This document shows, piece after piece, positions 9,930 through 64,000 of a stretch of 64,000 bases of DNA (position 1 is the stretch's first letter; each line of letters opens with the position of its first letter). The translations under genes and the position numbers were made by a program. Origin of the DNA: Callorhinchus milii. Its lineage: Eukaryota. The stretch lies in contig NW_024704742.1 of NCBI RefSeq assembly GCF_018977255.1, positions 81,532,001 through 81,596,000 on the forward strand, read 5' to 3'. The notes beneath the pieces were generated by a model that had not been told where the DNA came from, did no database searches, and worked only from the letters and a program-made list of their open reading frames with translations.

Positions 9930-11420
9930 CTCACCTCCTCCACCTACCTGACCTACCCCTAAAACCCTCTGATCCCGTACGCAACCTAGGCATCAGGTTC
10001 GACCCCCAATTATCCTTCCTCCCCCACATCCGGTCCCTCACCAGCACCGCTTTCTTCCACCGCAGACGCGTCGCCCGTCTCCACCAATACCTCTCCCCAA
10101 AAGCCACTAAAACTCTGGTGTTCCTCATATCTATGCCACAACTGGCACTGCCTTCCATCACCTCTGAAATATTGCCAGACTACGGCAATGCCTCACCCCT
10201 CACGCTGTTGAAACTCTGGTCCACGCCTTTATCACCTCAAGGCTGGACTATGGGAACTCTCTCCTCGCCGGCCTTCCCGGCACCTCCCTCCACAAGCTGC
10301 AGGTCATTCAGAACTCTGCAGCTCGTGTACTGTCCCGCACCAGGCTTCGGGACCACATCACTCCCACCCTCGCTCGCCCCACTGGCTCCCCATCCCCCAG
10401 AGGATCGAATTCAAGATCCTCATCCTCACCTACAAGGCCATTCATGGCCTCGCTCCCTCCTACCTCTTCGACCTACTATCTCCCTACCTACCCGCCCGTA
10501 CCCTCCGTTCCTCTGGCTCCGGTCTGCTCCACATCCCCCGCCCCAACCGCCCTACCATCGATGGCCGGGCCTTCAGTCTCTCAGCCCCGAGGCTCTGGAA
10601 CTCTATCCCCCAGTGCCTTCGCCGCCTCCTCCCTTTCCTCCTTCAAGGCTGATCTCAAGACTTTTCTCTTTGACCGTGCCTTCAGCTCCCCTCTCGACTC
10701 TCTAACCCCTCCTCGCTCCCTGCCTTCCCTCCCCTCACCCTGACCATTTCCCCCCTGCTCGGGTCCTGACCCAACTGTCCAGCGCCTTGGGACATCCTCC
10801 CGACGTGAAAGGCACTCTATAAATGAAATCTTGTTGTTGTTTGTCACCTCTCGGCTGGACTATTCAAACGCCTTCCTCGCCGGTCTCTCATCCACTACCA
10901 TCCATAAAATCCAAATCATTCAGAACTCTGCCGCCTCATTCTCACCTGCGCGAAACTCCGCTCCCCGATTACCCCAGTCCTTGCCAGACTGCACTGGCTG
11001 CCTGTCTGAGAGGGTCGATTTCATGATCCTCACCCTCGTATTCAAGTCCCTGCACTCCTCTGCACCCCCCTACCTCTCTGACCTCCTCTCTCCTCAGCAC
11101 AGTACCCGTTGCCTTTGTTCCTCCAGGTCTGGCCTCCTCCTTGTCCCCCGATTCCTCCATTCCATCCTTGGTGGCCGTGCCTTCAGCCACTATGCCCCGA
11201 GGCTCTGGAACTGCCTTGCTCACTCCCTTCATCTCACTCCCTCCCTTCCCATTTTCAGGTCTCTGCTGACGACCTTTCTTTTCGACCGCCCCTTTGGTCA
11301 CCTTCCCACCCCTCCCCCTGGCTCGGTCCCGGGATCCTAAACTGTAAAGCGCTCTGAGATGCCGTCCGGCGTGGAGGGCGCTATATAAATCCAAGCTGTT
11401 GTTGTTGTTGTTGTTGTTAT
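9930..11420 (+). mobile_element. Older L2 (9930-10119 and 10840-11420) with a younger L2 (10120-10839) nested inside
   Basis: The old copy reads VRNLGIRFDPQLSF...KTLV | FVTSRLDYSN across the insert. Both copies end in (TTG)n tails. Confidence 0.88.
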
Positions 11421-13849: not shown

Positions 13850-14174
13850 GTTATATATAGAAGAGATACTGAGCAATTCTTTAAATTATTGACTTCACTA
13901 AATAATGATAGACTTTAATGAATAAAGTTTGTTGAACTTGTATGGTAAAGTGGTGAGTCCTTGGCTAGAATTAAACAATGCACATCGTGGCTAGGCTTAT
14001 CAATATTTTGCTGCTATGAATCTACATTATGCCAAGTATCTTGGGAAACAATCTTTCCAGGTTAGTTCTAGTCTCTGCTCTTTTGTCTTTCACAATAGTT
14101 AAATCTGCCATTATTCCTGCATATCAGCTACTGCTGACATTACTGTTGGGAAACTGCAAAGCTACTGAATATCC

Positions 14175-14812
14175 ATCCTGTAGCTCAGTGGTTAGAGCAC
14201 TCGCCTTGTAAACGAGACACCTGGGTTCAACTTCAGGCAGAGCGAAACCTTGGGCAAGTTTCTTTACTCCACACGCCTACTAAAAATAATAATAATAATC
14301 CTTGCATTTGATATAGCGCTTTTCACGTCGGGAGGATGTCCCAAAGCGCTTCACAGAACACACTGTAAAGTGAATTGACTGTATATTTGTGGGCGAACGC
14401 GGCAGCCAATTGCGCACAGCAATGTCCCACAAACAGATTGAAAATGACCAATTTTATTATTGGTTTTGGTTTTGGAGGGATTATTATTAGGTGTGTGGAG
14501 TAAGGAAACTTGCCCAAGGTTTCACCCTGCCTGGAATTGAACTCAGGTCTCTCACTTGCAAAGCAAGTGCTCTAACCATCGAGCTACAGGACTCCACAAA
14601 AATCCCTCCAAAAACAAAAAACAATAATAAATTGATAATTTTCAATTCACGACTGTTTGTGGGACACTGCTTTGCGCAATTGGCTGCCTCGTTTCGCCCA
14701 CAAATATACAGTTAATTCACTTTACAGCATATTCTGTGAAGCGCTTTGAGACATGTAGAAGACGTGAAAAGCACTATATCAAATGCAAGGATTATTATTA
14801 TTATTATTATTA
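14175..14812. mobile_element. Plus-strand tRNA-headed SINE (14175-14285, 14597-14812) split by a full-length minus-strand copy (14286-14595)
   Basis: Two heads with A box TAGCTC(A/G)RTGG and B box GTTCAA, and two (ATT)n tails in opposite orientation. Confidence 0.88.
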
Positions 14813-16387: not shown

Positions 16388-16642
16388 ATAATAATAATAA
16401 TCCTTGCATTTGATATAGCGCTTTTCACGTCGGGAGGACGTCCCAAAGCGCTTCACAGAACACACTGTAAAGTGAATTGACTGTATATTTGTGGGCGAAT
16501 GCGGCAGCCAATTGCGCACAGCAATGTCCCACAAACAGTCGTAGAATGAAAATGACCAATTTATTATTATTTTTGTTTTGGAGGGATTATTATTAGGCGT
16601 GTGGAGTAAGGAAACTTGCCCAAGGTTTCGCCCTCTGCCTGG
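16388..16642 (-). mobile_element. Young SINE, head truncated
   Basis: Near-identical to 51293-51553. Confidence 0.9.
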
Positions 16643-16644
16643 AT

Positions 16645-24414: not shown

Positions 24415-24584
24415 ATAATTGGTAACATTAATGCCTCTGAGTCAGAAGGTTGTGGTTTCAAGTCCCACGATAGAACTTTGAACTGACACTCCAATTCAGT
24501 GCTGGGGGAGTGCTGCATTGTCAGAGGTGCTATCATTCGGATGAGGCATTAAACCAAGGTCTTGTCTGCCTGTTCAGATGGGTG
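24415..24584 (+). mobile_element. Deu-type SINE, 5' half (split by the provirus)
   Basis: GCCTCTGAGTCAGAAGGTTGTGGTTTCAAGTCCCAC...CGGATGAGGCATTAAACCAAGG...CCTGTTCAG. Confidence 0.8.
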
Positions 24585-24777
24585 TGTAAACTGCCGAAGC
24601 TAAAAATGGGAAACCATCAAGATGAAAACGATCGAGTTGAATGACCTCAGGACATGCATAAACCAACTTCCAAGGAAAAGGCAATGTCAAACACCAACTG
24701 GCCATAACAAAAGGCAAGGTGTTAACTGGATCAAACACAATGAACTGACTGAAGCTGGACTCAGGACACTTCGAGTC
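24585..24777 (+). repeat. 5' LTR (U3 part only; remainder and PBS deleted)
   Basis: Aligns by eye to 30025-30215 with about 13 differences in ~180 bp. Similarity stops near 24777 and no PBS is seen. Confidence 0.85.
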
Positions 24778-24877
24778 TGAGAAACGGGGAAAGGATTACT
24801 GGCCCAAGTGGTCTAACGTTGACCGGGTGTCAAGGTAGTCAGGAGTTTGAGTCCTAGGGTGATTAAAGCAGTTAAGA

Positions 24878-27099
24878 ATGGAAGAAAAAATTGGGAAATA
24901 TATAGACGAGGTTGTCTAAAAATGAGGGAGAGTTTGGGGCAGGGCAGATGTGCCCAACACCATTTGCGAAGTGTAGTCGTATTTTTGTGGAATTAAGAGA
25001 AAAGTGGAAAATAAAACAGGGTAATGAGAAGGCAGTATGGTTATTGGCCTCTCAATTTAAAATTGCACAGAGTGTGTTAAGAAAAGGAGAGCTTACCACA
25101 GAAAAAAGTGCTAAATGAGGAAAGGATTAGAGTACTCGAGGAGAAGGAGAAAGCCTTAGAGGGAAAGGCAGGGGAGTTAGAATTTATGTTAAAGAAAGCT
25201 TTAGAGGAGCTGAAAGCATAAAGACAAGGACTGAGAAGTGACGCAGAGCAGTACAGCAAGCAAATACACAGCTTGGAAGGGAACAGTGAATATTATCAGT
25301 CTCAGGTATCTCAGGTATAGGATTAAGGAGGACATTGGAGAATTTACAGGAGGATAATAGACAGGCAGAGCATCGCAATAGGTGGTTGACTCAAGATAAT
25401 GAAGATGTAAAGGCAACTGTTAAGATACAAGCTGCCATGGCTAGAGAATTTAGACAAGGGAATCCTACATCCCACGTACAGTGTGAAAGGAAGATACGAT
25501 AACTGGAAGCCCCGTTGAGGTTTAAGAGAGGGATCAAATGCACATTGAAGGGCATTAATGATGAGAATGATGAGAATATCGACTGGGATGATTTGAACAG
25601 AAAGGTGGCAGAACACCATGACCCTAAGAATGGGGGCTCATTTGAGATGTGTCCCATGGCCTATGTGTTAGTGATGCACCAAAATGTCCAAGGCCCATCC
25701 GTTCCCCCCAGAAGATCGAATTCAAGATCCTCATCCTCACCTACAAGGCCATTCACGGCCTTGCTCCCTCCTACCTCTCCGACCTACTATCCCCCTATCT
25801 ACCCGCCCGTACCCTCCGTTCCTCTGGCTCCGGTCTGCTCCACATCCCCCGCCCTAACCGCCCTACCATCGGTGACCGGGCCTTCAGCCTCTCAGCCCCG
25901 AGGCTCTGGAACTCTATCCCCCAGTGCCTTCGCCTTGCTTCCTCCCTTTCCTCCTTCAAGGCCGGTCTCAAGACCTTTCTCTTTGACCGTGCCTTCAGCT
26001 CCCCTCTCGACTCTCTACACCCTCCTCGCTCCCACCCTTCCCTCCCCTCACCCTGACCATTTCCCCCTGCTAGGGTCCTGACCCAACTATAGAGCGCCTT
26101 GGGACGTCCTCCTGACGTGAAAGGCGCTCTATAAATGGAATCTTGTTGTTGTTGTTGTTCCTCAGCTGCAGTCTCGGTTTATTGTTCCTTATACAGGACA
26201 CAGATTCAAGAGATGGCTGCTAAACTGCCCAAATATGATGGAAAAGGGGATCTTTTCAAACAGCTCTGAAGTAAGTTAGGTAGTCAACTTGAACACTCTC
26301 AGTAACATTGAGCATTTAAAGCTGGCTGGGTACACTTTGGGGCCTCATGTTTATGTGTTTTATTCCCTTATAGAAAGATGGGGACAGGAACGTTGCAGGA
26401 ATTAACAGATGAAGTAATGAGCATTATGGGGTAGGCTAGGGGTGACCCCACAGAAATGATAAGACAATGCAGGCAGGAAGAGGATGAGTCCCCGTGCATT
26501 TGTGGCCACAGTACGACCGACCCGTACAGTTTAAACCAGATTAACATGACCAGAGCAGCAGTAGGACAGAGGTGGTTAAGAACCCTCATCACACATTCAC
26601 TGCCTTTTCTCCAAGCAGCACTTAATGGGTTTGATGAGGAGGATCTGAATCCTACAGAGGCTTGGGTCCTCCGAAAGATGACATTGAAGTGGGAAGCTAG
26701 GAAGCATAATTTGAGAGGAAAGAAGGGCCAGGTATATTTAATGACTCGCCAAAAAAAAACGGCTAGTGTGGAAGAACGAGGGGTCCCGACAGGGGGATCC
26801 CAGGATGGACGGGGAAAAGAAAAGGATGGGAGGAATGGGAAGGATAATGTGATTACTGCAAGAAGCAAGGACACATTGAGAGTTGGTGCGGGCAGAAGAA
26901 TAATGTGGGGACAGGCCATTCAGGAACCCAGGGTGTGGGACAGGCCTGCCATGTGTGTTTAAGTGTGGAGGGCAGGACATTTTGCCAGGGAGTGCCCCCA
27001 ACAGGCTTCTCCCCACCAGTTGGAGCAGATGAAAGTAATTTAGCAATCTGTCCAGCCCTCAGCACCACCTCAGCCTATGGATGTACAGACTGGGTCTGA
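24878..27099 (+). pseudogene. gag: gag remnant: coiled-coil N-terminus, capsid-like region, CCHC zinc knuckle; stops, frameshifts and an L2 insertion
   Basis: ATG at 24878 (MEEKIGKY); coiled-coil EERIRVLEEKEKALEGKAGELEFMLKKALEELKA; QEMAAKLPKYDGKGDLF at ~26207; frameshifted knuckle (C)FKCGGQ(G)HFARECP at ~26952-26997. Confidence 0.8.
25706..26156 (+). mobile_element. Young 5'-truncated L2 LINE inserted in gag
   Basis: [25 protein letters not shown]...[12 protein letters not shown]...LKTFLF, (TTG)n tail, TSD GTTCC at 25701-25705 / 26157-26161. Confidence 0.9.
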
Positions 27100-27187
27100 T
27101 CCAATGCAAGGGCAGGTCCTATCTGAACAATGACAGGGACAAGCCTCAACACAAATGTTGTGCCTGTTCTGGTGCGACAGGTTTGGG

Positions 27188-27450
27188 GGACCATGTGTCC
27201 AGGTTGGTGTAAGAGGCTGCACTAGCGTATTTTTAATAGACACAAGAGCCTCCAGAACTGTAATTACTGAGTGAGAACCTGAAAAATCATCATTTGCTTT
27301 GAACCGAGCGATCATCTCTATCTGGCTTTACTGGAAACTCTCAGGGTGGAATCAATCCCTATTCCCCTTCAGATAATGCCATTGACATGTCATTGAATTT
27401 GTGGGATAGTGAATATGAAACAGAATCGTAGGAGCAGATTTGATGGGAGA
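27188..27450 (+). pseudogene. pro: Retroviral aspartic protease remnant
   Basis: GPCVQVGVRGCTSVFLIDTRASRTVI (DTGA-type active site mutated to DTRA) and downstream RIVGADLM (ILGxD-like motif). Confidence 0.8.
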
Positions 27451-27549
27451 GCAAAGGCGAGTAATAAATCTGGCAAATCTCTTGTTGTGGCAAACAGGAC
27501 CCCAGAGCCAATTTAAGAGAAATCCAATTGTGGTTCCTGATCATGGAGC

Positions 27550-27957
27550 AATGTACACCATTAAAACAATGGAACCGAATGATTTGGATGTACTGTTACA
27601 GGCAGAGGACCTTCAGATCCAAACAGTTATTGTGGACAATTTGGCAGCATTTGCCTTATATAAGCATGACTGTGGGAATTTGAAGGGGCAGGTGGAAATT
27701 GTTGGCCTGGACCAACTGACACCCTAGAGGCAGTACTGCTTTCCTCCAGAAGCCCATGAGCATGTCCAAGCCACCATTGATTCCCTGGTAAAGTAAAGTG
27801 TTCTTCGACCAATTGCCAAATCCTTCAATTCCCACATATGGCCAGTCCGAAAGTGCCTGCCTGTATGGAAGTGGTTGAGAAACCTCAGCAAGCCCTTGCT
27901 ACTGCTCCCACATTGAAAACCCCTGAAAGAGATAAGCCCTTTTACTTGGAGGTAGTG
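27550..27957 (+). pseudogene. pol: pol remnant: RT N-terminus joined to the post-RT region; RT core and integrase deleted
   Basis: AFALYKHDCG...RQYCFPPEAHEHVQATIDSLVK*SVLRPIAKSFNSHIWPVRK (RT start, cf. NSPIWPVRK), then directly QALATAPTLKTPERDKPFYLEV. No YxDD motif between them. Confidence 0.8.
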
Positions 27958-27961
27958 TCAC

Positions 27962-28636
27962 TATGGTCTTCCAGGAATCCCATAATGACATATTTAATTA
28001 AGGACTGAAGAATTTTCCCTACCACTGATGTCAGACCAACTGATCTATAGTTCCCCATCTTTTCACTCCCACCCTTCTTAAATAGTGGTGTCACGTTTGC
28101 AATCTTCCAATCAATGGGAATCGTTCCAGAATCCAGAGAATTTTGGAAGATCAAAGACAAGCCATCCACTATCTCAGTAGCCACCTCTTTTAAAACCCTA
28201 GGATGTAGGCCATTAGGTCCAGGAGATTTATCAGTTTTAAGACCTGATAATTTACCTAAAATAATTTCTTTACTAATATTAATTCCTCCAAGCTGCTCGC
28301 TAACATTTTCTTCTTGGTTCCCCTCTATTCTTGGTAGGTTTTCAGTGTCTTCTAAGGTGAAGACAGTAACAAAGTACTTGTTTAATGACTCTGCCATGTC
28401 TTTGTCCCCTACTATAATTCCCCCGTCTCTGCCTGTAGAGGACCCACATTTACCCTTGACAGCCTCTTCCTCTTTATATATTTATAAAAACTTTTGTAGT
28501 CTGTCTTTATGTTCCTCGTTAGTTTGCTCTCATATTCCATTTTCTCCCTCTTAATCACTTTTTTGGTTCTCCTTTGTTGATCCCTAAACTTCTCCCAATC
28601 CTCGGGTTTACTACTCATCTTAGCTGTTTTATAGGC
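27962..28636 (-). mobile_element. CR1 LINE ORF2 fragment inside the provirus
   Basis: KSPGPNGLHPRVLKE...DWKIANVTPLFKKG...NYR; near-identical to 62098-62773. Confidence 0.92.
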
Positions 28637-29835
28637 TCAAGGGAACTAAGATATGGTACGTGTGTTGGTGTAAGGAGAACAGTTCTCTTACTGAGGAAAA
28701 ACATAGTAGTAATTAAAGAATAGCACATTACTATACACTTGTTTTGTAGATAACAATAGCTTGGAACTAGACACCATTAAACAGTTGACAACAGGCACAT
28801 GGAATGCAGCAAGTGTGAATATGACAGAATCGCAGAATTTAGTGACTCTGGAGTTAATCGGATGTAACTCCACATGGAGCAGACCAAAATAAATATCAGC
28901 AGATGGTCTCGTTTACCCTTTCTCTGCCACAGTTTGATCCTAAAATGATTGATATACACAATTGGTTAAACCCTACTCGATGGGTATGATGGAAAAGGGA
29001 ATTTTAAAAGGAAGAAAAGAGGTCCCGTCTCTCATGGCTAGGAAAAATGAATCTGAATCATTGGAAAAAGTAGACTTGTCCTGTTGTTCAAACAGAGGGT
29101 ATAACTGGATGTGCAGGTGCGATGCCACCCCTGAAAAGACTAATACACCTATTTGTGGGATGAAATCACAAGGCTCAGAGAGAACCTCTGTGCCCAGTTC
29201 AACTCAAGGTAATGAATGGAGAATTCATTAAGAGTGCATATCACGAGCATGGGGAATATTGTATGTTAACTGATCAGAAACATTTTACTTATGGTAATCT
29301 ACAATGTGAATTAAATCAAACCCAGCTTTGTGTGAAGATAAGGAGACACTTTGTTATTGCTAATAATAATAATAATCCTTGCATTTGATATAGCGCTTTT
29401 CACGTCAGGAGGACGTCCCAAAGCACTTCACAGAACACACTGTAAAGTGAATTGACTGAATATTTGTGGGCGAACGCGGCAGCCAATTGCGCACAATCAT
29501 GGTTTGGACCCACTGATGATATATAATGGAACTCATGTAATTAATACTGTTGACCGTGAGAAACCTGATGATTATGTACCCAATTTTGAAATGCACATTG
29601 TACCGCCGACTCTCGAATTAGAGAAGTTGTTGGAGAAAATGGAAAGTCACCTGGTCCAAGTGACCAAAATGAGTAAAGTGCGGCAAGAAATGAGTAATCT
29701 AATATCACATTCTGATTATGAATTAACCATAGAGAACACTTTCGCTAAATGGATGTTTAAGATATTGTAATTGTACTACTGGTATTAGATACTATTCTTA
29801 TGTTTTTGTTTTGTTGTTTGTATAAAATACTTAAG
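28637..29835 (+). pseudogene. env: env remnant (C-terminal part), fusion-glycoprotein-like: Cys-rich domain, heptad region, TM
   Basis: Reconstructed across frameshifts: ...VNMTESQNLVTLELIGCNST...MVSFTLSLPQF...VDLSCCSNRGYNWMCRCDA...ICG...LCPVQL...HGEYCMLTD...LQCELNQTQLCV...[SINE]...LELEKLLEKMESHLVQVTKMSKVRQEMSNLI...KWMFKIL*...ILFLCFCFVVC. Several NxS/T sequons; lies between pol and the 3' LTR. Confidence 0.75.
29362..29495 (-). mobile_element. 5'-truncated SINE inserted in env
   Basis: 3' 135 bp of the young SINE family with (ATT)n tail; the env frame resumes on the other side. Confidence 0.9.
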
Positions 29836-30024
29836 TGATTGAACAAACATATGACATGGGTTGAATTAAAAGGTGAAAGTATTGTTGAGAATTGGAAATT
29901 ATTGAAAATGCAAAAGGTGGTTTAATTTGGGCAATTCGGGGATTAAGACTTGAACCTGAGAGTGAGGATATGACAATTGAATTAGCAGGCAGCTCTTGAT
30001 AACCGCACCTGCTGGAGGATGGAC

Positions 30025-30920
30025 TGTAAGATACCGAAGCTGCAAAATGGGAAACCATCAAGATGAAAACAATTGAGTTGAATGACCTCAGGACATGCAT
30101 GCACCAATTTACAAGGAAAAGGCAATGTCTAACACCAACTGGCCATAACAAAAGACAAGGTGTTAACTGGATCAAACACAATGAACTGACTGAAGCTGGA
30201 CTCAGGAAATGCATCAAACACAAATGAACTGACTGAAACTGGGCTTAGGATACTTTGAATCCATGGCAGAAATAAACAAGTCCTCTATAGTCAATGAAAG
30301 ACACACAAATAATCAGCGTAGGATGGGAAGAAAAAAGGGTTACAAAAGCTTAAGTGAGCAGCGGAAGGAGAGAGATCATGGCTACAGTAGAGGAGCAACA
30401 TCGACGAGTAGTCACTCCAGGTCTCCCAGGGTAAGAAATTTGATTAAACTGAGCCCTGAATCATCTTCCGCAGTTTTATGTGTTAAACGTTTAACTGTTG
30501 TAACCGTTGTTTTGGTTAGCAATGAATAATATCTAGTTTACTGTATTTTGTCTCTGTTCAAATACCTTGTCAAGATAATAATAATAATAATAATAATAAT
30601 CCTTGCATTTGATATAGCGCTTTTCACATCGGGAGGACGTCCCAAAGCGCTTCACAGAACACACCGTAAAGTGAATTGACTGTATATTTTTTGTGGGCGA
30701 ACGCGGCAGCCAATTGAGCACAGCAATGTCCCACACACAGTCGTAGATTGAAAACGACCAATTTATTATTATTTTTTGTTTTGGAGGGATTATTATTAGG
30801 CGTGTGGAGTAAGGAAACTTACCCAAGGTTTCGCCCTGCCTGGAACAATCAGGCAGGGCGAAACAAGATGAACAATCAGAACAGGATGAAGACTAAGCAC
30901 CCTCGCCACAAAACCCTACA
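30025..30920 (+). repeat. 3' LTR, interrupted by a SINE
   Basis: Preceded by purine-rich GGAGGATGGAC (PPT-like). TG...CA ends, internal ~45-bp tandem duplication at 30170-30260, host SINE resumes at 30921. Confidence 0.8.
30577..30863 (-). mobile_element. SINE inserted in the 3' LTR with a rearranged 5' junction
   Basis: Young SINE body with (ATT)n tail, flanked by CAAGAT at 30571-30576 and 30864-30869. Confidence 0.85.
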
Positions 30921-31160
30921 GATCGATGGCACTATTTGAAATGAGAATAGAGTTTCTCTTGGTGTCCTGGCCAACATATCCCCAATTAAAATTGGTCATT
31001 CACTTCATAACTGTTTGTGGGACATTGCTGTGTACACATTGGCTGTTGGGTTCACCTACAAAATATGCAGTCACTACATTTCACAACAGATCTTGTGAAG
31101 TGCTTTAAGATATCCTCCCAACATAAAAGATGCTATATCAAATATAAGTATTATTATTAT
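30921..31160 (+). mobile_element. Deu-type SINE, 3' half (split by the provirus)
   Basis: GATCGATGGCACTATTTGAA...GTGTCCTGGCCAAC...TGTTTGTGGGACATTGCTG...(ATT)n, the continuation seen in intact copies such as 60455-60773. Confidence 0.8.
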
Positions 31161-32942: not shown

Positions 32943-33590
32943 CACGCTGCTGAAACTCTGGTCCACGCCTTTATCACCTCAAGGCTGGACTATGGGAACT
33001 CTCTCCTCGCCGGCCTTCCCGCCACCTCCCTCCACAAGCTGCAGGTCATTCAGAACTCTGCAGCTCGTGTACTGTCCCGCACCAGGCTTCGGGACCACAT
33101 CACTCCCACCCTCGCTCGCCTCCACTGGCTCCCCATCCCCCAGAGGATCGAATTCAAGATCCTCATCCTCACCTACAAGGCCATTCACAGCCTCGCTCCC
33201 TCCTACCTCTCCGACCTACTATCCCCCTATCTACCTGCCCGTACCCTCCGTTCCTCTGGCTCCGGTCTGCCCCACATACCCCGCCCCAACCACCCTAGCA
33301 TCGGTGTCCGGGCCTTCAGCCTCTCAGCCCCGAGGCTCTGGAACTCTATCCCCCAGTGCCTTCGCCGCCTCCTCCTTTTCCTCCTTCAAGGCCGGTCTCA
33401 AGACCTTTCTCTTTGACCGCGCCTTCAGCTCCCCTCTCAACTCTCTACCCCTTCCTCGCTCCCTCCCTTCCCTCCCCTCACCCTGACCATTTCCCCCCTG
33501 CTCGGGTCCTGACCCAACTGTCCAGCGCTTTGGGACGTCCTCCCGACGTGAAAGGCGCTGTATAAATGGAATCTTGTTGTTGTTGTTGTT
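32943..33590 (+). mobile_element. Young L2 3' fragment
   Basis: [19 protein letters not shown]...[22 protein letters not shown], (TTG)n tail; near-identical to 10200-10839. Confidence 0.92.
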
Positions 33591-43298: not shown

Positions 43299-43618
43299 GG
43301 AGTCCTGTAGCTCAGTGGTTAGAGCACTCGCTTTGCAAGCGAGAGACCTGAGTTCAATTCGAGGCAGGGCAAAACCTTGGGCAAGTTTCCTTACTCCACA
43401 CAGAGCCTAATAATAATCCCTCCAAAACCAAAAACAATAATTAAATTGGTCATTTTCAATTCTACGACTGTTTGTGGGCCACTGCTGTGCGCAATTGGCT
43501 GCCGCGTTCACCCACAAATATACAGTCAATTTACTTTACAGTGTGTTCTGTGAAGTGCTTTGGGACATCCTCCCGACATGAAAAGCGCTATATCAAATGC
43601 AAGGATTTTTATTATTAT
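43299..43618 (+). mobile_element. Full-length young tRNA(Ala)-like-headed SINE, short variant
   Basis: GGAGTCCTGTAGCTCAGTGGTTAGAGCACTCGCTTTGCAAGCGAGAGACCTGAGTTCAATTC head (A and B boxes, TGC loop), L2-like tail, (ATT)n. Confidence 0.92.
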
Positions 43619-50877: not shown

Positions 50878-51195
50878 GGAGGCCTGTAGCTCAGTGGCTA
50901 GAGCACTCGGCTCGCAAGTGAGAGATCTGGGTTCGATTCCCAGCAGGGCAAAACTTTGGGCAAATTTCCTTACTCCACACGCCTGATAATCATCCCTCAA
51001 GAAAAAAAATAATAAATTGGTCACTTCAATCCACGACTGTTTGTGGGACACTGCTGTGTGCAGTCGGCTGCCGAGTTTCACCCACTAATATACAGTCAAT
51101 TCACTCTCCAGTATATTCTGTGAAGTGCTTTGAGACGTCTAGAAGACATGAAAAGCGCTATATCAAATGCAAGGATTGTTATTTATTATTATTAT
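50878..51195 (+). mobile_element. Full-length tRNA-headed SINE, short variant
   Basis: Head TAGCTCAGTGG...GGTTCGATTCC; tail. Confidence 0.9.
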
Positions 51196-51292: not shown

Positions 51293-51613
51293 AATAATAA
51301 TAATAATAATCCTTGCATTTGATATAGCGCTTTTCACGTCGGGAGAACGTCCCAAAGCGCTTCACAGAACACACTGTAAAGTGAATTGAATGTATATTTG
51401 TGGGCGAACGCGGCAGCCAATTGCGCACAGCAATGTCCCACAAACAGTCGTAGATTGAAAATGACCAATTTATTATTGTTTTTGGTTTTGGAGGGATTAT
51501 TATTAGGTGTGTGGAGTAAGGAAACTTGCCCAAGGTTTCGCCCTCTGCCTGGAATTGAACTCAGGTCTCTCGCTTGCAAAGCGAGTGCTCTAACCACTGA
51601 GCTACAGGACTCC
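51293..51613 (-). mobile_element. Full-length young tRNA-headed SINE, short variant
   Basis: Reverse complement of the 43299-43618 family. Confidence 0.92.
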
Positions 51614-60773: not shown

Positions 60774-62773
60774 CTTAAGAACATAAGAACATAGGAATTA
60801 GGAGCAGGAGTAGGCCATTTGGCCCCTCGAGCCTGCCCCGCCATTTGATAAGATCATGGCTGATCTTCAGACCTAACTCTAATTACCTGTCCTATATCCC
60901 ATATCCCTTAATCCCTCTATTTTTAAAAAAATTATCAGTCTCAGTCTTGAAGATGTTCAAGGACTGAGCATCTACAGCCTTCTGGGGTAGTGAATTCCAT
61001 AAATTCACTACCTTCTGAGTGAAGAAATGTTTCCTCAAGTCTGTTCTAAAAGGCTGACCCTTAATTTTAAGACTGTGACCCCTGGTTATAGATTCTCCTA
61101 CCAGGGGAAACAGACCCTCAGTGTATACTTTATCCAGCCCTTTAAGAATCTTATATGTATCTTATACGATCTCCCCTAATTCTTCTGTACTCTAGAGAAT
61201 ACAACCCTAGTTTATTCAGCCTATCCTCACAGGTCAGTCCCCTCATCCCAGGAACTAACCAAGTGAATCTACGCTGCACCCCCTCTAGGGCAAGTATATC
61301 CTTTTTCAAATAAGGAGACCAAAAGTGCACACAATACTCTAGGTGCGGTCTCACCAAGGCCCTATACAGTTGCAGCAAGACTTCCCTACTCTTGTACTCT
61401 AAACCTTTTGCAATGAATGCTAACATGCCGTTCGTCTTCTTAGTTGCTTGCTGCACCTGCAAACTAACTTTTTGAGACTGGTGTACAAGGACACCCAAAT
61501 CCCTCTGCACACTAACACTATCTAATCTTTCCCCCTCTAGAAAATAATCTGTTTTTCTATTTTTGCTACCTAGGTGAATAACTTCACACTTCCCCACATT
61601 AAATTCCATCTGCCACCTACTCGCCCACTCCCCTAACCTATCTATATCCCGTTGCAATCTTTTTGCATCATCCTCAGAGCTTACTCTCCCACCTAGTTTA
61701 GTGTCATCCGCGAATTTAGATACGTTACATTCAATGTCCTCGTCTAGATCATTGATGTAAATTGTAAATAGCTGAGGCCCAAGCACTGATCCTTGTGGCA
61801 CTCCACTAGTCACATCCTGCCAATTCGAGAATGACCCGTTTATCCCTACTCTCTGTTTTCTACCCGTTAGCCACTCTTCAATCCATGCTAATATGTTCCC
61901 ATTAATCCCGTGGGCCTTAACCTTGTGCAATAGCCTTTTGTGTGGCACTTTGTCAAATGCCTTTTTAAAATCTAAATATACTACATCTACTGGTTCCCCC
62001 CTATCTAACCTGCTAGATACATCTTCAAAAAACTCTAAAAGATTAGTTAAGCATGACTTCCCTTTTGTAAAGCCATGTTGACTCTGCCTAATCTTGTTAT
62101 GGTCTTCCAGGAATCCCATAATGACATCTTTAATTAAGGACTCAAGAATTTTCCCTACCACTGATGTCAGACTAACTGGTCTATAGTTCCCCATCTTTTC
62201 TCTCCCACCCTTCTTAAATAGTGGTGTCACGTTTGCAATCTTCCAATCAATGGGAACCGTTCCAGAATCCAGAGAATTTTGGAAGATCAAAGACAAGCCA
62301 TCCACTATCTCAGTAGCCACCTCTTTTAAAACCCTAGGATGTAGGCCATCAGGTCCAGGAGATTTATCAGTTTTAAGACCTGATAATTTACCTAAAATAA
62401 TTTCTTTACTAATATTAATTCCTCCAAGTTGCTCGCTAACATTTTCTTCTTGGTTCCCCTCTATTCTTGGTAGGTTTTCAGTGTCTTCTAAGGTGAAGAC
62501 AGTAACAAAGTACTTGTTTAATGACTCTGCCATGTCTTTGTCCCCTACTATAATTCCCCCCGTCTCTGCCTGTAGAGGACCCACATTTACCCTTGACAGC
62601 CTCTTCCTCTTTATATATTTATAAAAACCTTTGTAGTCTGTCTTTATGTTCCTCGCTAGTTTGCTCTCATATTCCATTTTCTCCCTCTTAATCACTTTTT
62701 TGGTTCTCCTTTGTTGATCCCTAAACTTCTCCCAATCCTCGGGTTTACTACTCATCTTAGCTGTTTTATAGGC
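60774..62773 (-). mobile_element. Young 5'-truncated CR1 LINE with intact 3' end
   Basis: Complete RT domain, 3' UTR and terminal octamer repeat (ATGTTCTT)2 on the minus strand near 60776-60793. No APE endonuclease domain. Confidence 0.95.
61151..62755 (-). CDS. CR1 ORF2 reverse transcriptase region, 534-aa open frame (5'-truncated, frameshift near C-terminus)
   Basis: NYRPVSLTS, QHGF, YLDFKKAFDKV, GVPQGSVLGP, SKFADDTKL, LVRPHLEYC. The frame shifts at GDRIRYI, where GDLIETYKIL is expected. Confidence 0.85.
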   Translation of the reverse strand: MSSKPEDWEKFRDQQRRTKKVIKREKMEYESKLARNIKTDYKGFYKYIKRKRLSRVNVGPLQAETGGIIVGDKDMAESLNKYFVTVFTLEDTENLPRIEGNQEENVSEQLGGINISKEIILGKLSGLKTDKSPGPDGLHPRVLKEVATEIVDGLSLIFQNSLDSGTVPIDWKIANVTPLFKKGGREKMGNYRPVSLTSVVGKILESLIKDVIMGFLEDHNKIRQSQHGFTKGKSCLTNLLEFFEDVSSRLDRGEPVDVVYLDFKKAFDKVPHKRLLHKVKAHGINGNILAWIEEWLTGRKQRVGINGSFSNWQDVTSGVPQGSVLGPQLFTIYINDLDEDIECNVSKFADDTKLGGRVSSEDDAKRLQRDIDRLGEWASRWQMEFNVGKCEVIHLGSKNRKTDYFLEGERLDSVSVQRDLGVLVHQSQKVSLQVQQATKKTNGMLAFIAKGLEYKSREVLLQLYRALVRPHLEYCVHFWSPYLKKDILALEGVQRRFTWLVPGMRGLTCEDRLNKLGLYSLEYRRIRGDRIRYI

Positions 62774-63736
62774 TCAAGGGAACTAAGATATGTTACGTGT
62801 GTTGGTGTAAGGAGAACAGTTCTCTTACTGAGGAAAAACATAGTAGTAATTATAGTATAGCACATTACTATACACTTGTTTTGTAGATAACAATAGCTTG
62901 GAACTAGACACCATTAAACAGTTGACAACAGGCACATGGAATGCAGCAAGTGTGAATATGACAGAATCACAGAATTTAGTGACTCTGGAGTTAATCGGAT
63001 GTAACTCCACATGGAGCAGACCAAAATAAATATCAGCAGATGGTCTCGTTTACCCTTTCTCTGCCACAGTTTGATCCTAAAATGATTGATATACACAATT
63101 GGTTAAACCCTATTCGATGGGTATGATGGAAAAGGGAATTTTAAAAGGAAGAAAAGAGGTCCCGTCTCTCATGGCTAGGAAAAATGAATCTGAATCATTG
63201 GAAAAAGTAGACTTGTCCTGTTGTTCAAACAGAGGGTATAACTGGATGTGCAGGTGCGATGCCACCCCTGAAAAGACTAATACACCTATTTGTGGGATGA
63301 AATCACAAGGCTCAGAGAGAACCTCTGTGCCCAGTTCAACTCAAGGTAATGAATGGAGAATTCATTAAGACTGCATATCACGAGCATGGGGAATATTGTA
63401 TGTTAACTGATCAGAAACATTTTACTTATGGTAATCTACAATGTGAATTAAATCAAACCCAGCTTTGTGCGAAGATAAGGAGACACTTTGTTATTGCTAA
63501 TAATAATAATAATCCTTGCATTTGATATAGCGCTTTTCACGTTGGGAGAACGTCCCAAAGCACTTCACAGAACACACTGTAAAGTGAATTGACTGAATAT
63601 TTGTGGGCGAACGCGGCAGCCAATTGCGCACAATCATGGTTTGGACCCACTAATGATATATAATGGAACTCATGTAATTAATACTGTTGACCGTGAGAAA
63701 CCTGATGATTATGTACCCAATTTTGAAATGCACATT
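62774..63736 (+). pseudogene. env: Second copy of the proviral env fragment, including the same SINE insertion (63499-63632)
   Basis: Near-identical to 28637-29599 at a constant offset of 34137 bp; the ORF track shows the same 89-aa peptide at 28962 and 63099. Confidence 0.93.
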
Positions 63737-64000
63737 TGTCACGTCTGCAATCTTCCAATCAATGGGAATTGTTCCGGAATCCAGAGGACTTTGGAAGATC
63801 AAAGACAAGCCATCCACTATCTCAGTAGCCACCTCTTTTAAAACCCTAGGATGTAGGCCATCAGGTCCAGGAGATTTATTAGTTTTAAGACCTGACAATT
63901 TACCTAAAACCATTTCTTTACTAATATTAATTCCCCCAAGTTGCTCGCGAACAATTTTTTTCTTTTTTCTTGGTTCCCTTCTATTCTCGATAGGTTTTCA
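63737..64000 (-). mobile_element. CR1 ORF2 fragment running off the window end
   Basis: KSPGPDGLHPRVLKEVATEIVDGLSLIFQ...DWKIADVT; paralogous to ~62225-62480. Confidence 0.9.

Follow-up and report, generated by a model that had tools for sequence, protein, structure and literature searches.

The 64,000-nucleotide stretch of Callorhinchus milii (elephant shark) DNA analysed here, referred to below as the window (contig NW_024704742.1, positions 81,532,001 to 81,596,000), carries a damaged endogenous retrovirus (ERV) at positions 24585..30920, and the question that this locus raises is to which retroviral lineage it belongs. An initial annotation, made from the letters alone, had read it as a Loki-type provirus (a lokiretrovirus) whose presence in a probable cartilaginous fish could widen the known host range of that lineage. 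The provirus itself is real: the region is a retroviral remnant with a pair of long terminal repeats (LTRs), a gag gene encoding a coiled coil, a protease, the start of a reverse transcriptase (RT) and a remnant of env. Its residence in a probable cartilaginous fish is also supported, the best Gag matches being shark proteins. When gag-pol and env are considered jointly, their sequences make it quite probable that this is a dead provirus of the snakehead retrovirus (SnRV) clade whose env remnant is likely of the F type, that is, paramyxovirus-like. SnRV-clade ERVs correspond to clade Huo of class III in the available excerpts of PMC6001957 and PMC12193657.

Placement of gag and pol

The following parts of gag and pol are left in the provirus.

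24778..25704, + strand: 5' part of gag, interrupted by stops and frameshifts; it encodes a long coiled coil and a D-W-x-x-L motif (match to P0011, E 0.002)
26160..27133, + strand: capsid and nucleocapsid part of gag, with two CCHC knuckles (tblastn with the catshark Gag proteins P0011, E 2.6e-12, and P0026, E 2.5e-10)
27134..27853, + strand: protease, a 79-aa spacer and the first ~65 aa of RT, broken (P0003, 36% identity, E 3e-19; SnRV Pol, 30%, E 3e-16)
27874..27951, + strand: start of the tether (degenerate RNase H), where the alignment jumps from residue 212 of P0003 to residue 444 (this piece E 0.12; Pfam RT_RNaseH_2 E 0.0037, below the cut-off)

A phmmer search with the query 26162-27853 against 1,835,955,588 proteins (cut-off E ≤ 0.001) returned 24 matches, the fourth of which, P0006, was the Pol of SnRV (E 1.9e-11), the sole classified virus among them. 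The RT of P0006 equals the SnRV row in the alignment of Wang & Han, and P0006 is 99% identical to the 10,688-nt viral contig L001. Of 20 matches looked up, ten have names, and these came from bullfrog, Xenopus, coelacanth, turtles (five proteins) and catshark (two proteins, matching gag); the full-length matches contained RT, tether, RNase H and integrase. One match, P0005, was a spurious repeat protein and was dropped. A profile built from 13 of the matches scored the protease-RT region at 119.7 bits and found no other place in the window. As a separate observation on SnRV, its Pol contains in the interval between RNase H and integrase (~4650-4950 of L001) an insert with two H-x-T/S motifs of the kind found in 2H phosphoesterases.

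The coiled coil ascribed to gag by the initial annotation is present in character, with weak Pfam coiled-coil matches only, and the two catshark proteins that match Gag best have a coiled-coil and knuckle layout like that of the window gag. Instead of the single CCHC knuckle reported there are two, one whole at 26848-26889 and the other broken by frameshifts near 26950-27000. SnRV Gag carries a coiled coil and a CCHC knuckle, and the combination found in SnRV-clade Gag, a coiled coil plus zinc knuckle in frame with pro-pol, was also found here: the gag stop at 27131-27133 shares its frame with the protease.

The protease motif D-T-x-A (at 27239) and the RT-start motifs FALYKHDCG...QY...NSHIWPVRK, the latter in a single frame at 27650-27853 with two stops inside, had been read correctly. 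Downstream of them a deletion of ~230 codons fuses the RT start to the tether, so that the catalytic core of RT is gone; of the tether no more than the initial 26 aa are left, and a tether plus RNase H is common to all retroviruses. The distance between the protease G-x-D and the DCG preceding RT is 79 aa in the window, 77 in SnRV and 70-80 in the 8 measurable matches, and that from DCG to QY is 21 in both the window and SnRV and 20-23 in 15 of the 24 matches. This protease-RT start spacing, together with the motif FAx[HK]xxDCG, is the layout of SnRV and of CmiERV lineage I, an ERV lineage of the elephant shark. In Loki Pols the protease-RT spacer is ~200-260 aa and the DCG-to-QY distance 24 (counted by hand at 15 of 23 places in the available part of the PMC7947760 supplement), and a spacer of this length, which as a criterion is our own observation and not a published definition, is absent from the provirus. 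KHDCG had 0 occurrences in the searched part of that supplement. Because KHDCG/WPVRK occurs, by eye, in CmiERV lineage I, and a coiled-coil Gag in both this lineage and SnRV, the markers on which the Loki assignment had been built are features of the SnRV clade.

Gag and pol very probably belong to the SnRV clade (class III, clade Huo), and it is ERVs of this clade that they match instead of lokiretroviruses. Grouping with a conventional ERV clade, the outcome against which the initial annotation had set its own reading, holds by similarity. Several points weigh against this placement. Of RT, only ~65 aa are left, and the tree built from the matches (17 rows, 150 columns, from which P0022 and the Gag, protease-only and short rows were left out, and which contained no Loki, foamy or epsilon sequences) is unrooted and without resolved branching. 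The matches were chosen by their likeness to the window, so the agreement of their spacers is partly circular; Loki Pols are assumed to be present in the protein library searched; and the window gag has two knuckles versus one in SnRV. Word-seeded homolog search with the RT start yielded 0 of 245 candidates, and viral contigs gave 0 hits with a Loki RT motif and SnRV only with the Pol alignment. A metagenome scan with catshark Gag produced one knuckle-only match, L002, which was not used.

The same evidence bears on whether the provirus could be a true, divergent lokiretrovirus, as first proposed. The F-like env register described below, a coiled-coil gag as in zebrafish Bik-1, and the series DCG...QY...WPV, common with the Loki rows and extended to WPVRK in Loki-Oja (in the available part of the alignment), fit that proposal. 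It is nevertheless very improbable: Loki-type proteins numbered 0 among the 24 matches, the 79-aa spacer falls far short of ~200-260 aa, and the motifs cited in its favour occur in SnRV-clade ERVs. Moreover, the provirus has zinc knuckles, whereas a search of the available part of the Loki supplement for five common knuckle starts found none, and in Bik-1 a glycine-rich patch takes the place of knuckles.

We consider a foamy-like ERV of fish, or a Ty3/gypsy element with an env, just as improbable. Such an origin is suggested by the top PDB match of the RT start, a foamy virus PR-RT (E 0.01), and by the F-like Env proteins of foamy viruses and of some gypsy elements. That PDB match is weak and only the best among solved structures. 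The nearest relatives of the provirus possess both tether and RNase H, and SnRV, with E 1.9e-11, is one of them. In addition, two CCHC knuckles are found here, whereas spumavirus Gag is without zinc knuckles in the available excerpt of PMC2717909.

The hosts named in the initial annotation for lokiretroviruses (lampreys, bony fishes, amphibians and reptiles) are right. In the available text of PMC7947760, Wang & Han screened six chondrichthyan genomes, that of the elephant shark included, with 0 positives, and our literature searches met no report of Loki in sharks. SnRV-clade or clade III ERVs are known and abundant in cartilaginous fish (PMC4422223 and the accessible parts of PMC6001957 and PMC11089739), and since they are, the proposed extension of host range falls away.

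The envelope remnant

Upstream of the 3' LTR lie three further pieces.

28636..29360, + strand: env remnant, surface end and cysteine-rich piece, with RKKR at 29009, an internal deletion, a cysteine-rich part from 29073 and a frameshift near 29160-29190
29361..29495, - strand: fragment of a short interspersed element (SINE) within env, 93-97% identical to many window copies
29496..29940, + strand: C-terminal env remnant with a helical stretch, an anchor at 29764-29820 and a short tail, frameshifted

A third open reading frame (ORF) had been reported here. There is indeed a coding remnant, but not an ORF: the env pieces are spread over several frames, contain many stops and are further disrupted by a large internal deletion and by the SINE. 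RKKR is a basic cleavage-type motif, the fusion peptide region is deleted, and the anchor has a mean hydropathy of 3.0 over 19 aa. If X is put in at the frameshift, the cysteine-rich piece reads D-L-x-x-C, then 8 residues, a C preceded two positions earlier by an aromatic residue, 13 residues, C-G, 10 residues, C, and an aromatic residue 22 further on. Compared by eye, the Loki Env rows in the available part of PMC7947760 have the same register with spacings of 9, 13, 9 and 22. The strict single-frame form of this pattern has two occurrences in the window, one in each copy of env (the second is described below), and none in 100 shuffles, while a loose form occurs 0.27 times per shuffled window. 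The stretch from the cysteine-rich piece to the anchor, inspected by eye in all frames, shows none of the marks of a gamma-type Env (immunosuppressive domain, CX6CC), env being partly deleted.

We also looked at the Env of SnRV. Its residues 330-850 are an ESM Atlas neighbour of a Fusion_gly cluster with a score of 0.91 (194/256 features; PF00523 in 88% of the members), a value to be read against a control in which 4-10 of 100 shuffles reach 0.9. The gene occupies 6131-9535 of L001 and is paramyxovirus-F-like by its Atlas features. Word-seeded homolog search with SnRV Env 600-1000 recovered SnRV itself only (1 of 4627 candidates). Literature searches found no F-like Env reported for SnRV or its clade, although subscription papers and preprint supplements may hold one.

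The env remnant is probably F-type (paramyxovirus-like, class Ib), as its cysteine register and general build suggest. The kinship with F proteins asserted in the initial annotation holds in that the remnant looks F-type and has the Loki Env cysteine register, but its use as a Loki marker does not. Lokiretroviruses cannot be recognised by an F-like Env, because SnRV Env scores F-like and foamy Env is F-like (class Ib) by structure (available excerpt of PMC11468914).

A number of results count against the F-type assignment. The cysteine pattern was written after both sequences had been seen, and SnRV Env has the first cysteine pair only, the second pair being common to the window and Loki. The window env found no match in Pfam, in PDB or by tblastn with SnRV Env; its word-seeded homolog search gave 0 of 2 candidates; and for the C-terminal piece 29456-29767 Atlas returned unrelated short proteins. 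For SnRV Env, Pfam and PDB sequence searches found no F protein, nor did a fold search with its single-sequence AlphaFold model, which was poor (pLDDT 37.5) and unusable. These uniformly negative database searches, the post hoc pattern and the frequency of its loose form would also fit a third region that is not F-type at all, i.e. an unrelated env or accessory gene with a chance cysteine match. We consider this unlikely, given the position of the remnant, its basic cleavage motif and anchor, about nine positions in register with Loki Env, the 0 of 100 shuffles for the strict pattern and the lack of any gamma-type motif in what remains. The placement of gag-pol would be unaffected.

Alternatively, the provirus could be a recombinant in which SnRV-clade gag-pol was joined to an env captured from a lokiretrovirus, which would imply a past Loki infection of cartilaginous fish. 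In its cysteine register the env is indeed closer to the Loki Env rows than to SnRV Env, where the second pair is missing, and env swapping is documented in the clade: an SnRV-related Pol with a gamma-type Env appears in the available part of 10.1101/2021.11.23.469661, and CmiERV lineage I shows the same by eye. Beyond the fixed positions, however, little likeness to the Loki rows can be seen by eye, F-type proteins may simply have inherited the cysteine set from their ancestor, and the six chondrichthyan genomes yielded 0 Loki. We rate this recombinant as improbable to the same degree as a third region that is not F-type, and prefer an SnRV-clade provirus with a probably F-type env.

Boundaries, decay and the second env copy

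The boundaries of the provirus, the insertions of long interspersed elements (LINEs) and SINEs and the second env copy are as follows.

24481..24584, + strand: older host repeat, left half, 70-81% identical to several window copies, resuming in the right flank
24585..24777, + strand: 5' LTR remnant (start of U3 only), 93% identical to 30025-30207, family D6; the remainder of the LTR, the primer site and the start of gag are deleted
25705..26159, + strand: LINE 3' fragment inside gag, which we take to be L2-type; high-copy, 94% identical to 33137-33590 and 10394-10841, contig depth ~1e5 times that of the flank
27962..28635, - strand: LINE ORF2 fragment, presumably CR1-type, 98.7% identical to 62098-62773, a longer copy that has an open frame of 540 aa
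30025..30920, + strand: 3' LTR with TGTAA...CTACA termini, containing a 43-nt tandem duplication at 30180-30261
30578..30845, - strand: tRNA-derived SINE within the 3' LTR, 90-95% identical to 51293-51554, 16388-16643 and 14278-14536, which adjoin ARAGORN tRNA-like heads
30921..31060, + strand: older host repeat, right half, interrupted by the provirus
62098..63736, + strand: younger duplicate of 27962-29599, comprising the CR1 piece, the second env remnant and the SINE; 98.7% identical over 1639 nt and embedded in CR1 sequence

The LTR pair that had been proposed, with starts at 24585 and 30025, was confirmed (170 of 183 nt identical, 93%), with the correction that the 5' LTR is a remnant of ~190 nt ending near 24777 and fused directly to gag; no primer-binding site was found. 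The 43-nt tandem duplication occurs in the 3' LTR only and not in the 5' remnant. No target-site duplication was found: the two flanks together make up an older host repeat that lacks 5 nt, and the right end at 30920 is therefore defined by that repeat and by the TG...CA termini. The Kimura two-parameter distance between the LTRs is 0.069 (182 sites, SE ~0.02), which corresponds to 16 million years at a mammalian rate or 157 million years at the shark rate assumed in Han 2015, and because of this spread the insertion can be dated only as old. LINE and SINE insertions make up ~1.5 kb of the 6.3 kb of the provirus, RNase H and integrase were lost through a deletion ending at the CR1-type piece 27962..28635, and no smc-like frame was seen in the provirus besides the Gag coiled coil. 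All its reading frames are rich in stops, and the locus can be taken to make no functional protein now.

Support for the assembly came from contigs of 4 of the 24 listed public runs, all from one study, in which depth was taken as a hint only. These contigs cover the locus at ~99% identity, one (24737-25732) spanning the LTR-gag junction and another (26811-28063) the RT deletion, and an assembly artefact was rejected on these grounds. Contig depth was 5-22 in the interior of the provirus, 8-18 in the flank and 34-97 in the LTR, the last hinting at a small family without giving its size. In two runs, contigs ~89% identical to 24873-25198 diverged upstream, which indicates that the 5' region of gag has one or more paralogues elsewhere in the genome.

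In all four runs the contigs branch at the point expected for the second env copy, and copy-2 alleles are present in them. The duplication would be later than the SINE insertion and earlier than the deletion that truncated the CR1 of the provirus, and the longer CR1 hosting the second copy retains its 3' tail. This LINE is a 2-kb CR1-type element on the minus strand of 60779-64000, with an open ORF2 piece of 540 aa at 61151-62773 and with 960 nt of env plus the SINE at its 5' end; the adjoining CR1 piece at 63737-64000 (91%) has 3 bases of microhomology at the junction. The env DNA likely moved 34 kb through 5' transduction with a template switch, or by CR1-CR1 recombination.

While alive, the element would have operated in the manner of SnRV, producing LTR-driven RNA and a Gag whose N-terminal part forms a coiled coil and which carries zinc knuckles. 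Pro-Pol, including an RT with a tether plus RNase H, may have been made by read-through of the in-frame gag stop, as the shared frame and the SnRV layout suggest. Env, presumably made from a spliced RNA, would have been cleaved at the basic motif to give a surface subunit and a membrane-anchored subunit mediating class Ib fusion. Integration into an older repeat in the germ line would have been followed by decay through LINE and SINE insertions and the loss of most of the 5' LTR, the RT core, the RNase H-integrase region and the middle of env, and the CR1-plus-env piece would later have been copied to the place 34 kb away.

Apart from the provirus, four ARAGORN tRNA calls in the window (14174-14245, 43301-43372, 50880-50951 and 51540-51610) are heads of a very abundant tRNA-derived SINE, the tail of which resembles the LINE end, and are most likely not true tRNA genes.

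Comparison with known systems

The locus itself is unremarkable, a dead ERV from a clade that sharks and chimaeras are known to carry; it leaves the Loki host range where it was and cautions that an F-like env plus a coiled-coil gag do not identify a lokiretrovirus. We tentatively entertain, at somewhat less than an even chance, the wider idea that the SnRV clade, whose members formally count as orthoretroviruses, has an F-type class Ib Env in common with Loki and foamy viruses, and that the fossil in the window preserves the linking cysteine set. Three deep branches (Loki, foamy and the SnRV clade) would then share one type of Env, which bears on the origin of retroviral Env: the F-type would either be the original envelope of both retroviruses and Loki viruses or have been exchanged between the two, and the gamma-type would be a later replacement. 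The preference expressed in the available part of PMC9040795 is, to the contrary, for independent acquisition of Env. The idea is testable on a natural cultured virus, SnRV.

Foamy viruses (available excerpt of PMC11468914) have an F-like (class Ib) envelope, as the window element probably does, and resemble it weakly in the RT start (E 0.01), whereas the window element differs by its zinc knuckles, by a pol that is not in a separate frame and by the absence of an env sequence match. Lokiretroviruses or lokiorterviruses (accessible parts of PMC7947760 and PMC9040795) share with it the cysteine and aromatic register of Env, the basic cleavage site, the coiled-coil Gag and, as far as it survives, the tether. 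By RT they form a clade sister to Odin that lies outside the sampled retroviruses; their F-like Env has an RXKR site, a coiled coil and an anchor, their integrase is close to CGIN1, and some of them carry an smc gene. The window element, in contrast, has an SnRV-type RT start and zinc knuckles, is without the long protease-RT spacer, shows no smc gene and comes from a host class in which none has been found.

CmiERV lineage I of the elephant shark clusters with SnRV (Han 2015, PMC4422223). Translated by eye, it has the same KHDCG...QY...WPVRK RT start and long coiled-coil Gag, but it differs from the window provirus in its LTR, in an Env that is gamma-type by eye and in an LTR divergence of 0.033 versus 0.069. 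Identity with this lineage was rejected on account of the different LTR and the absence from its data set of four window DNA motifs (13-14 nt, which could be split by line ends). By its sequence, the window family lies outside the three CmiERVs and within a known clade.

SnRV itself differs from the window element, which has two knuckles, a second Env cysteine pair and no recognised 3' accessory ORF, and which is dead and deleted. The two are alike in the protease-RT start (30% identical, E 3e-16) with matching spacers, in a coiled-coil Gag with D-W-x-x-L and CCHC, in the in-frame gag stop before pol, and in a non-gamma Env whose first cysteine pair follows the same pattern.

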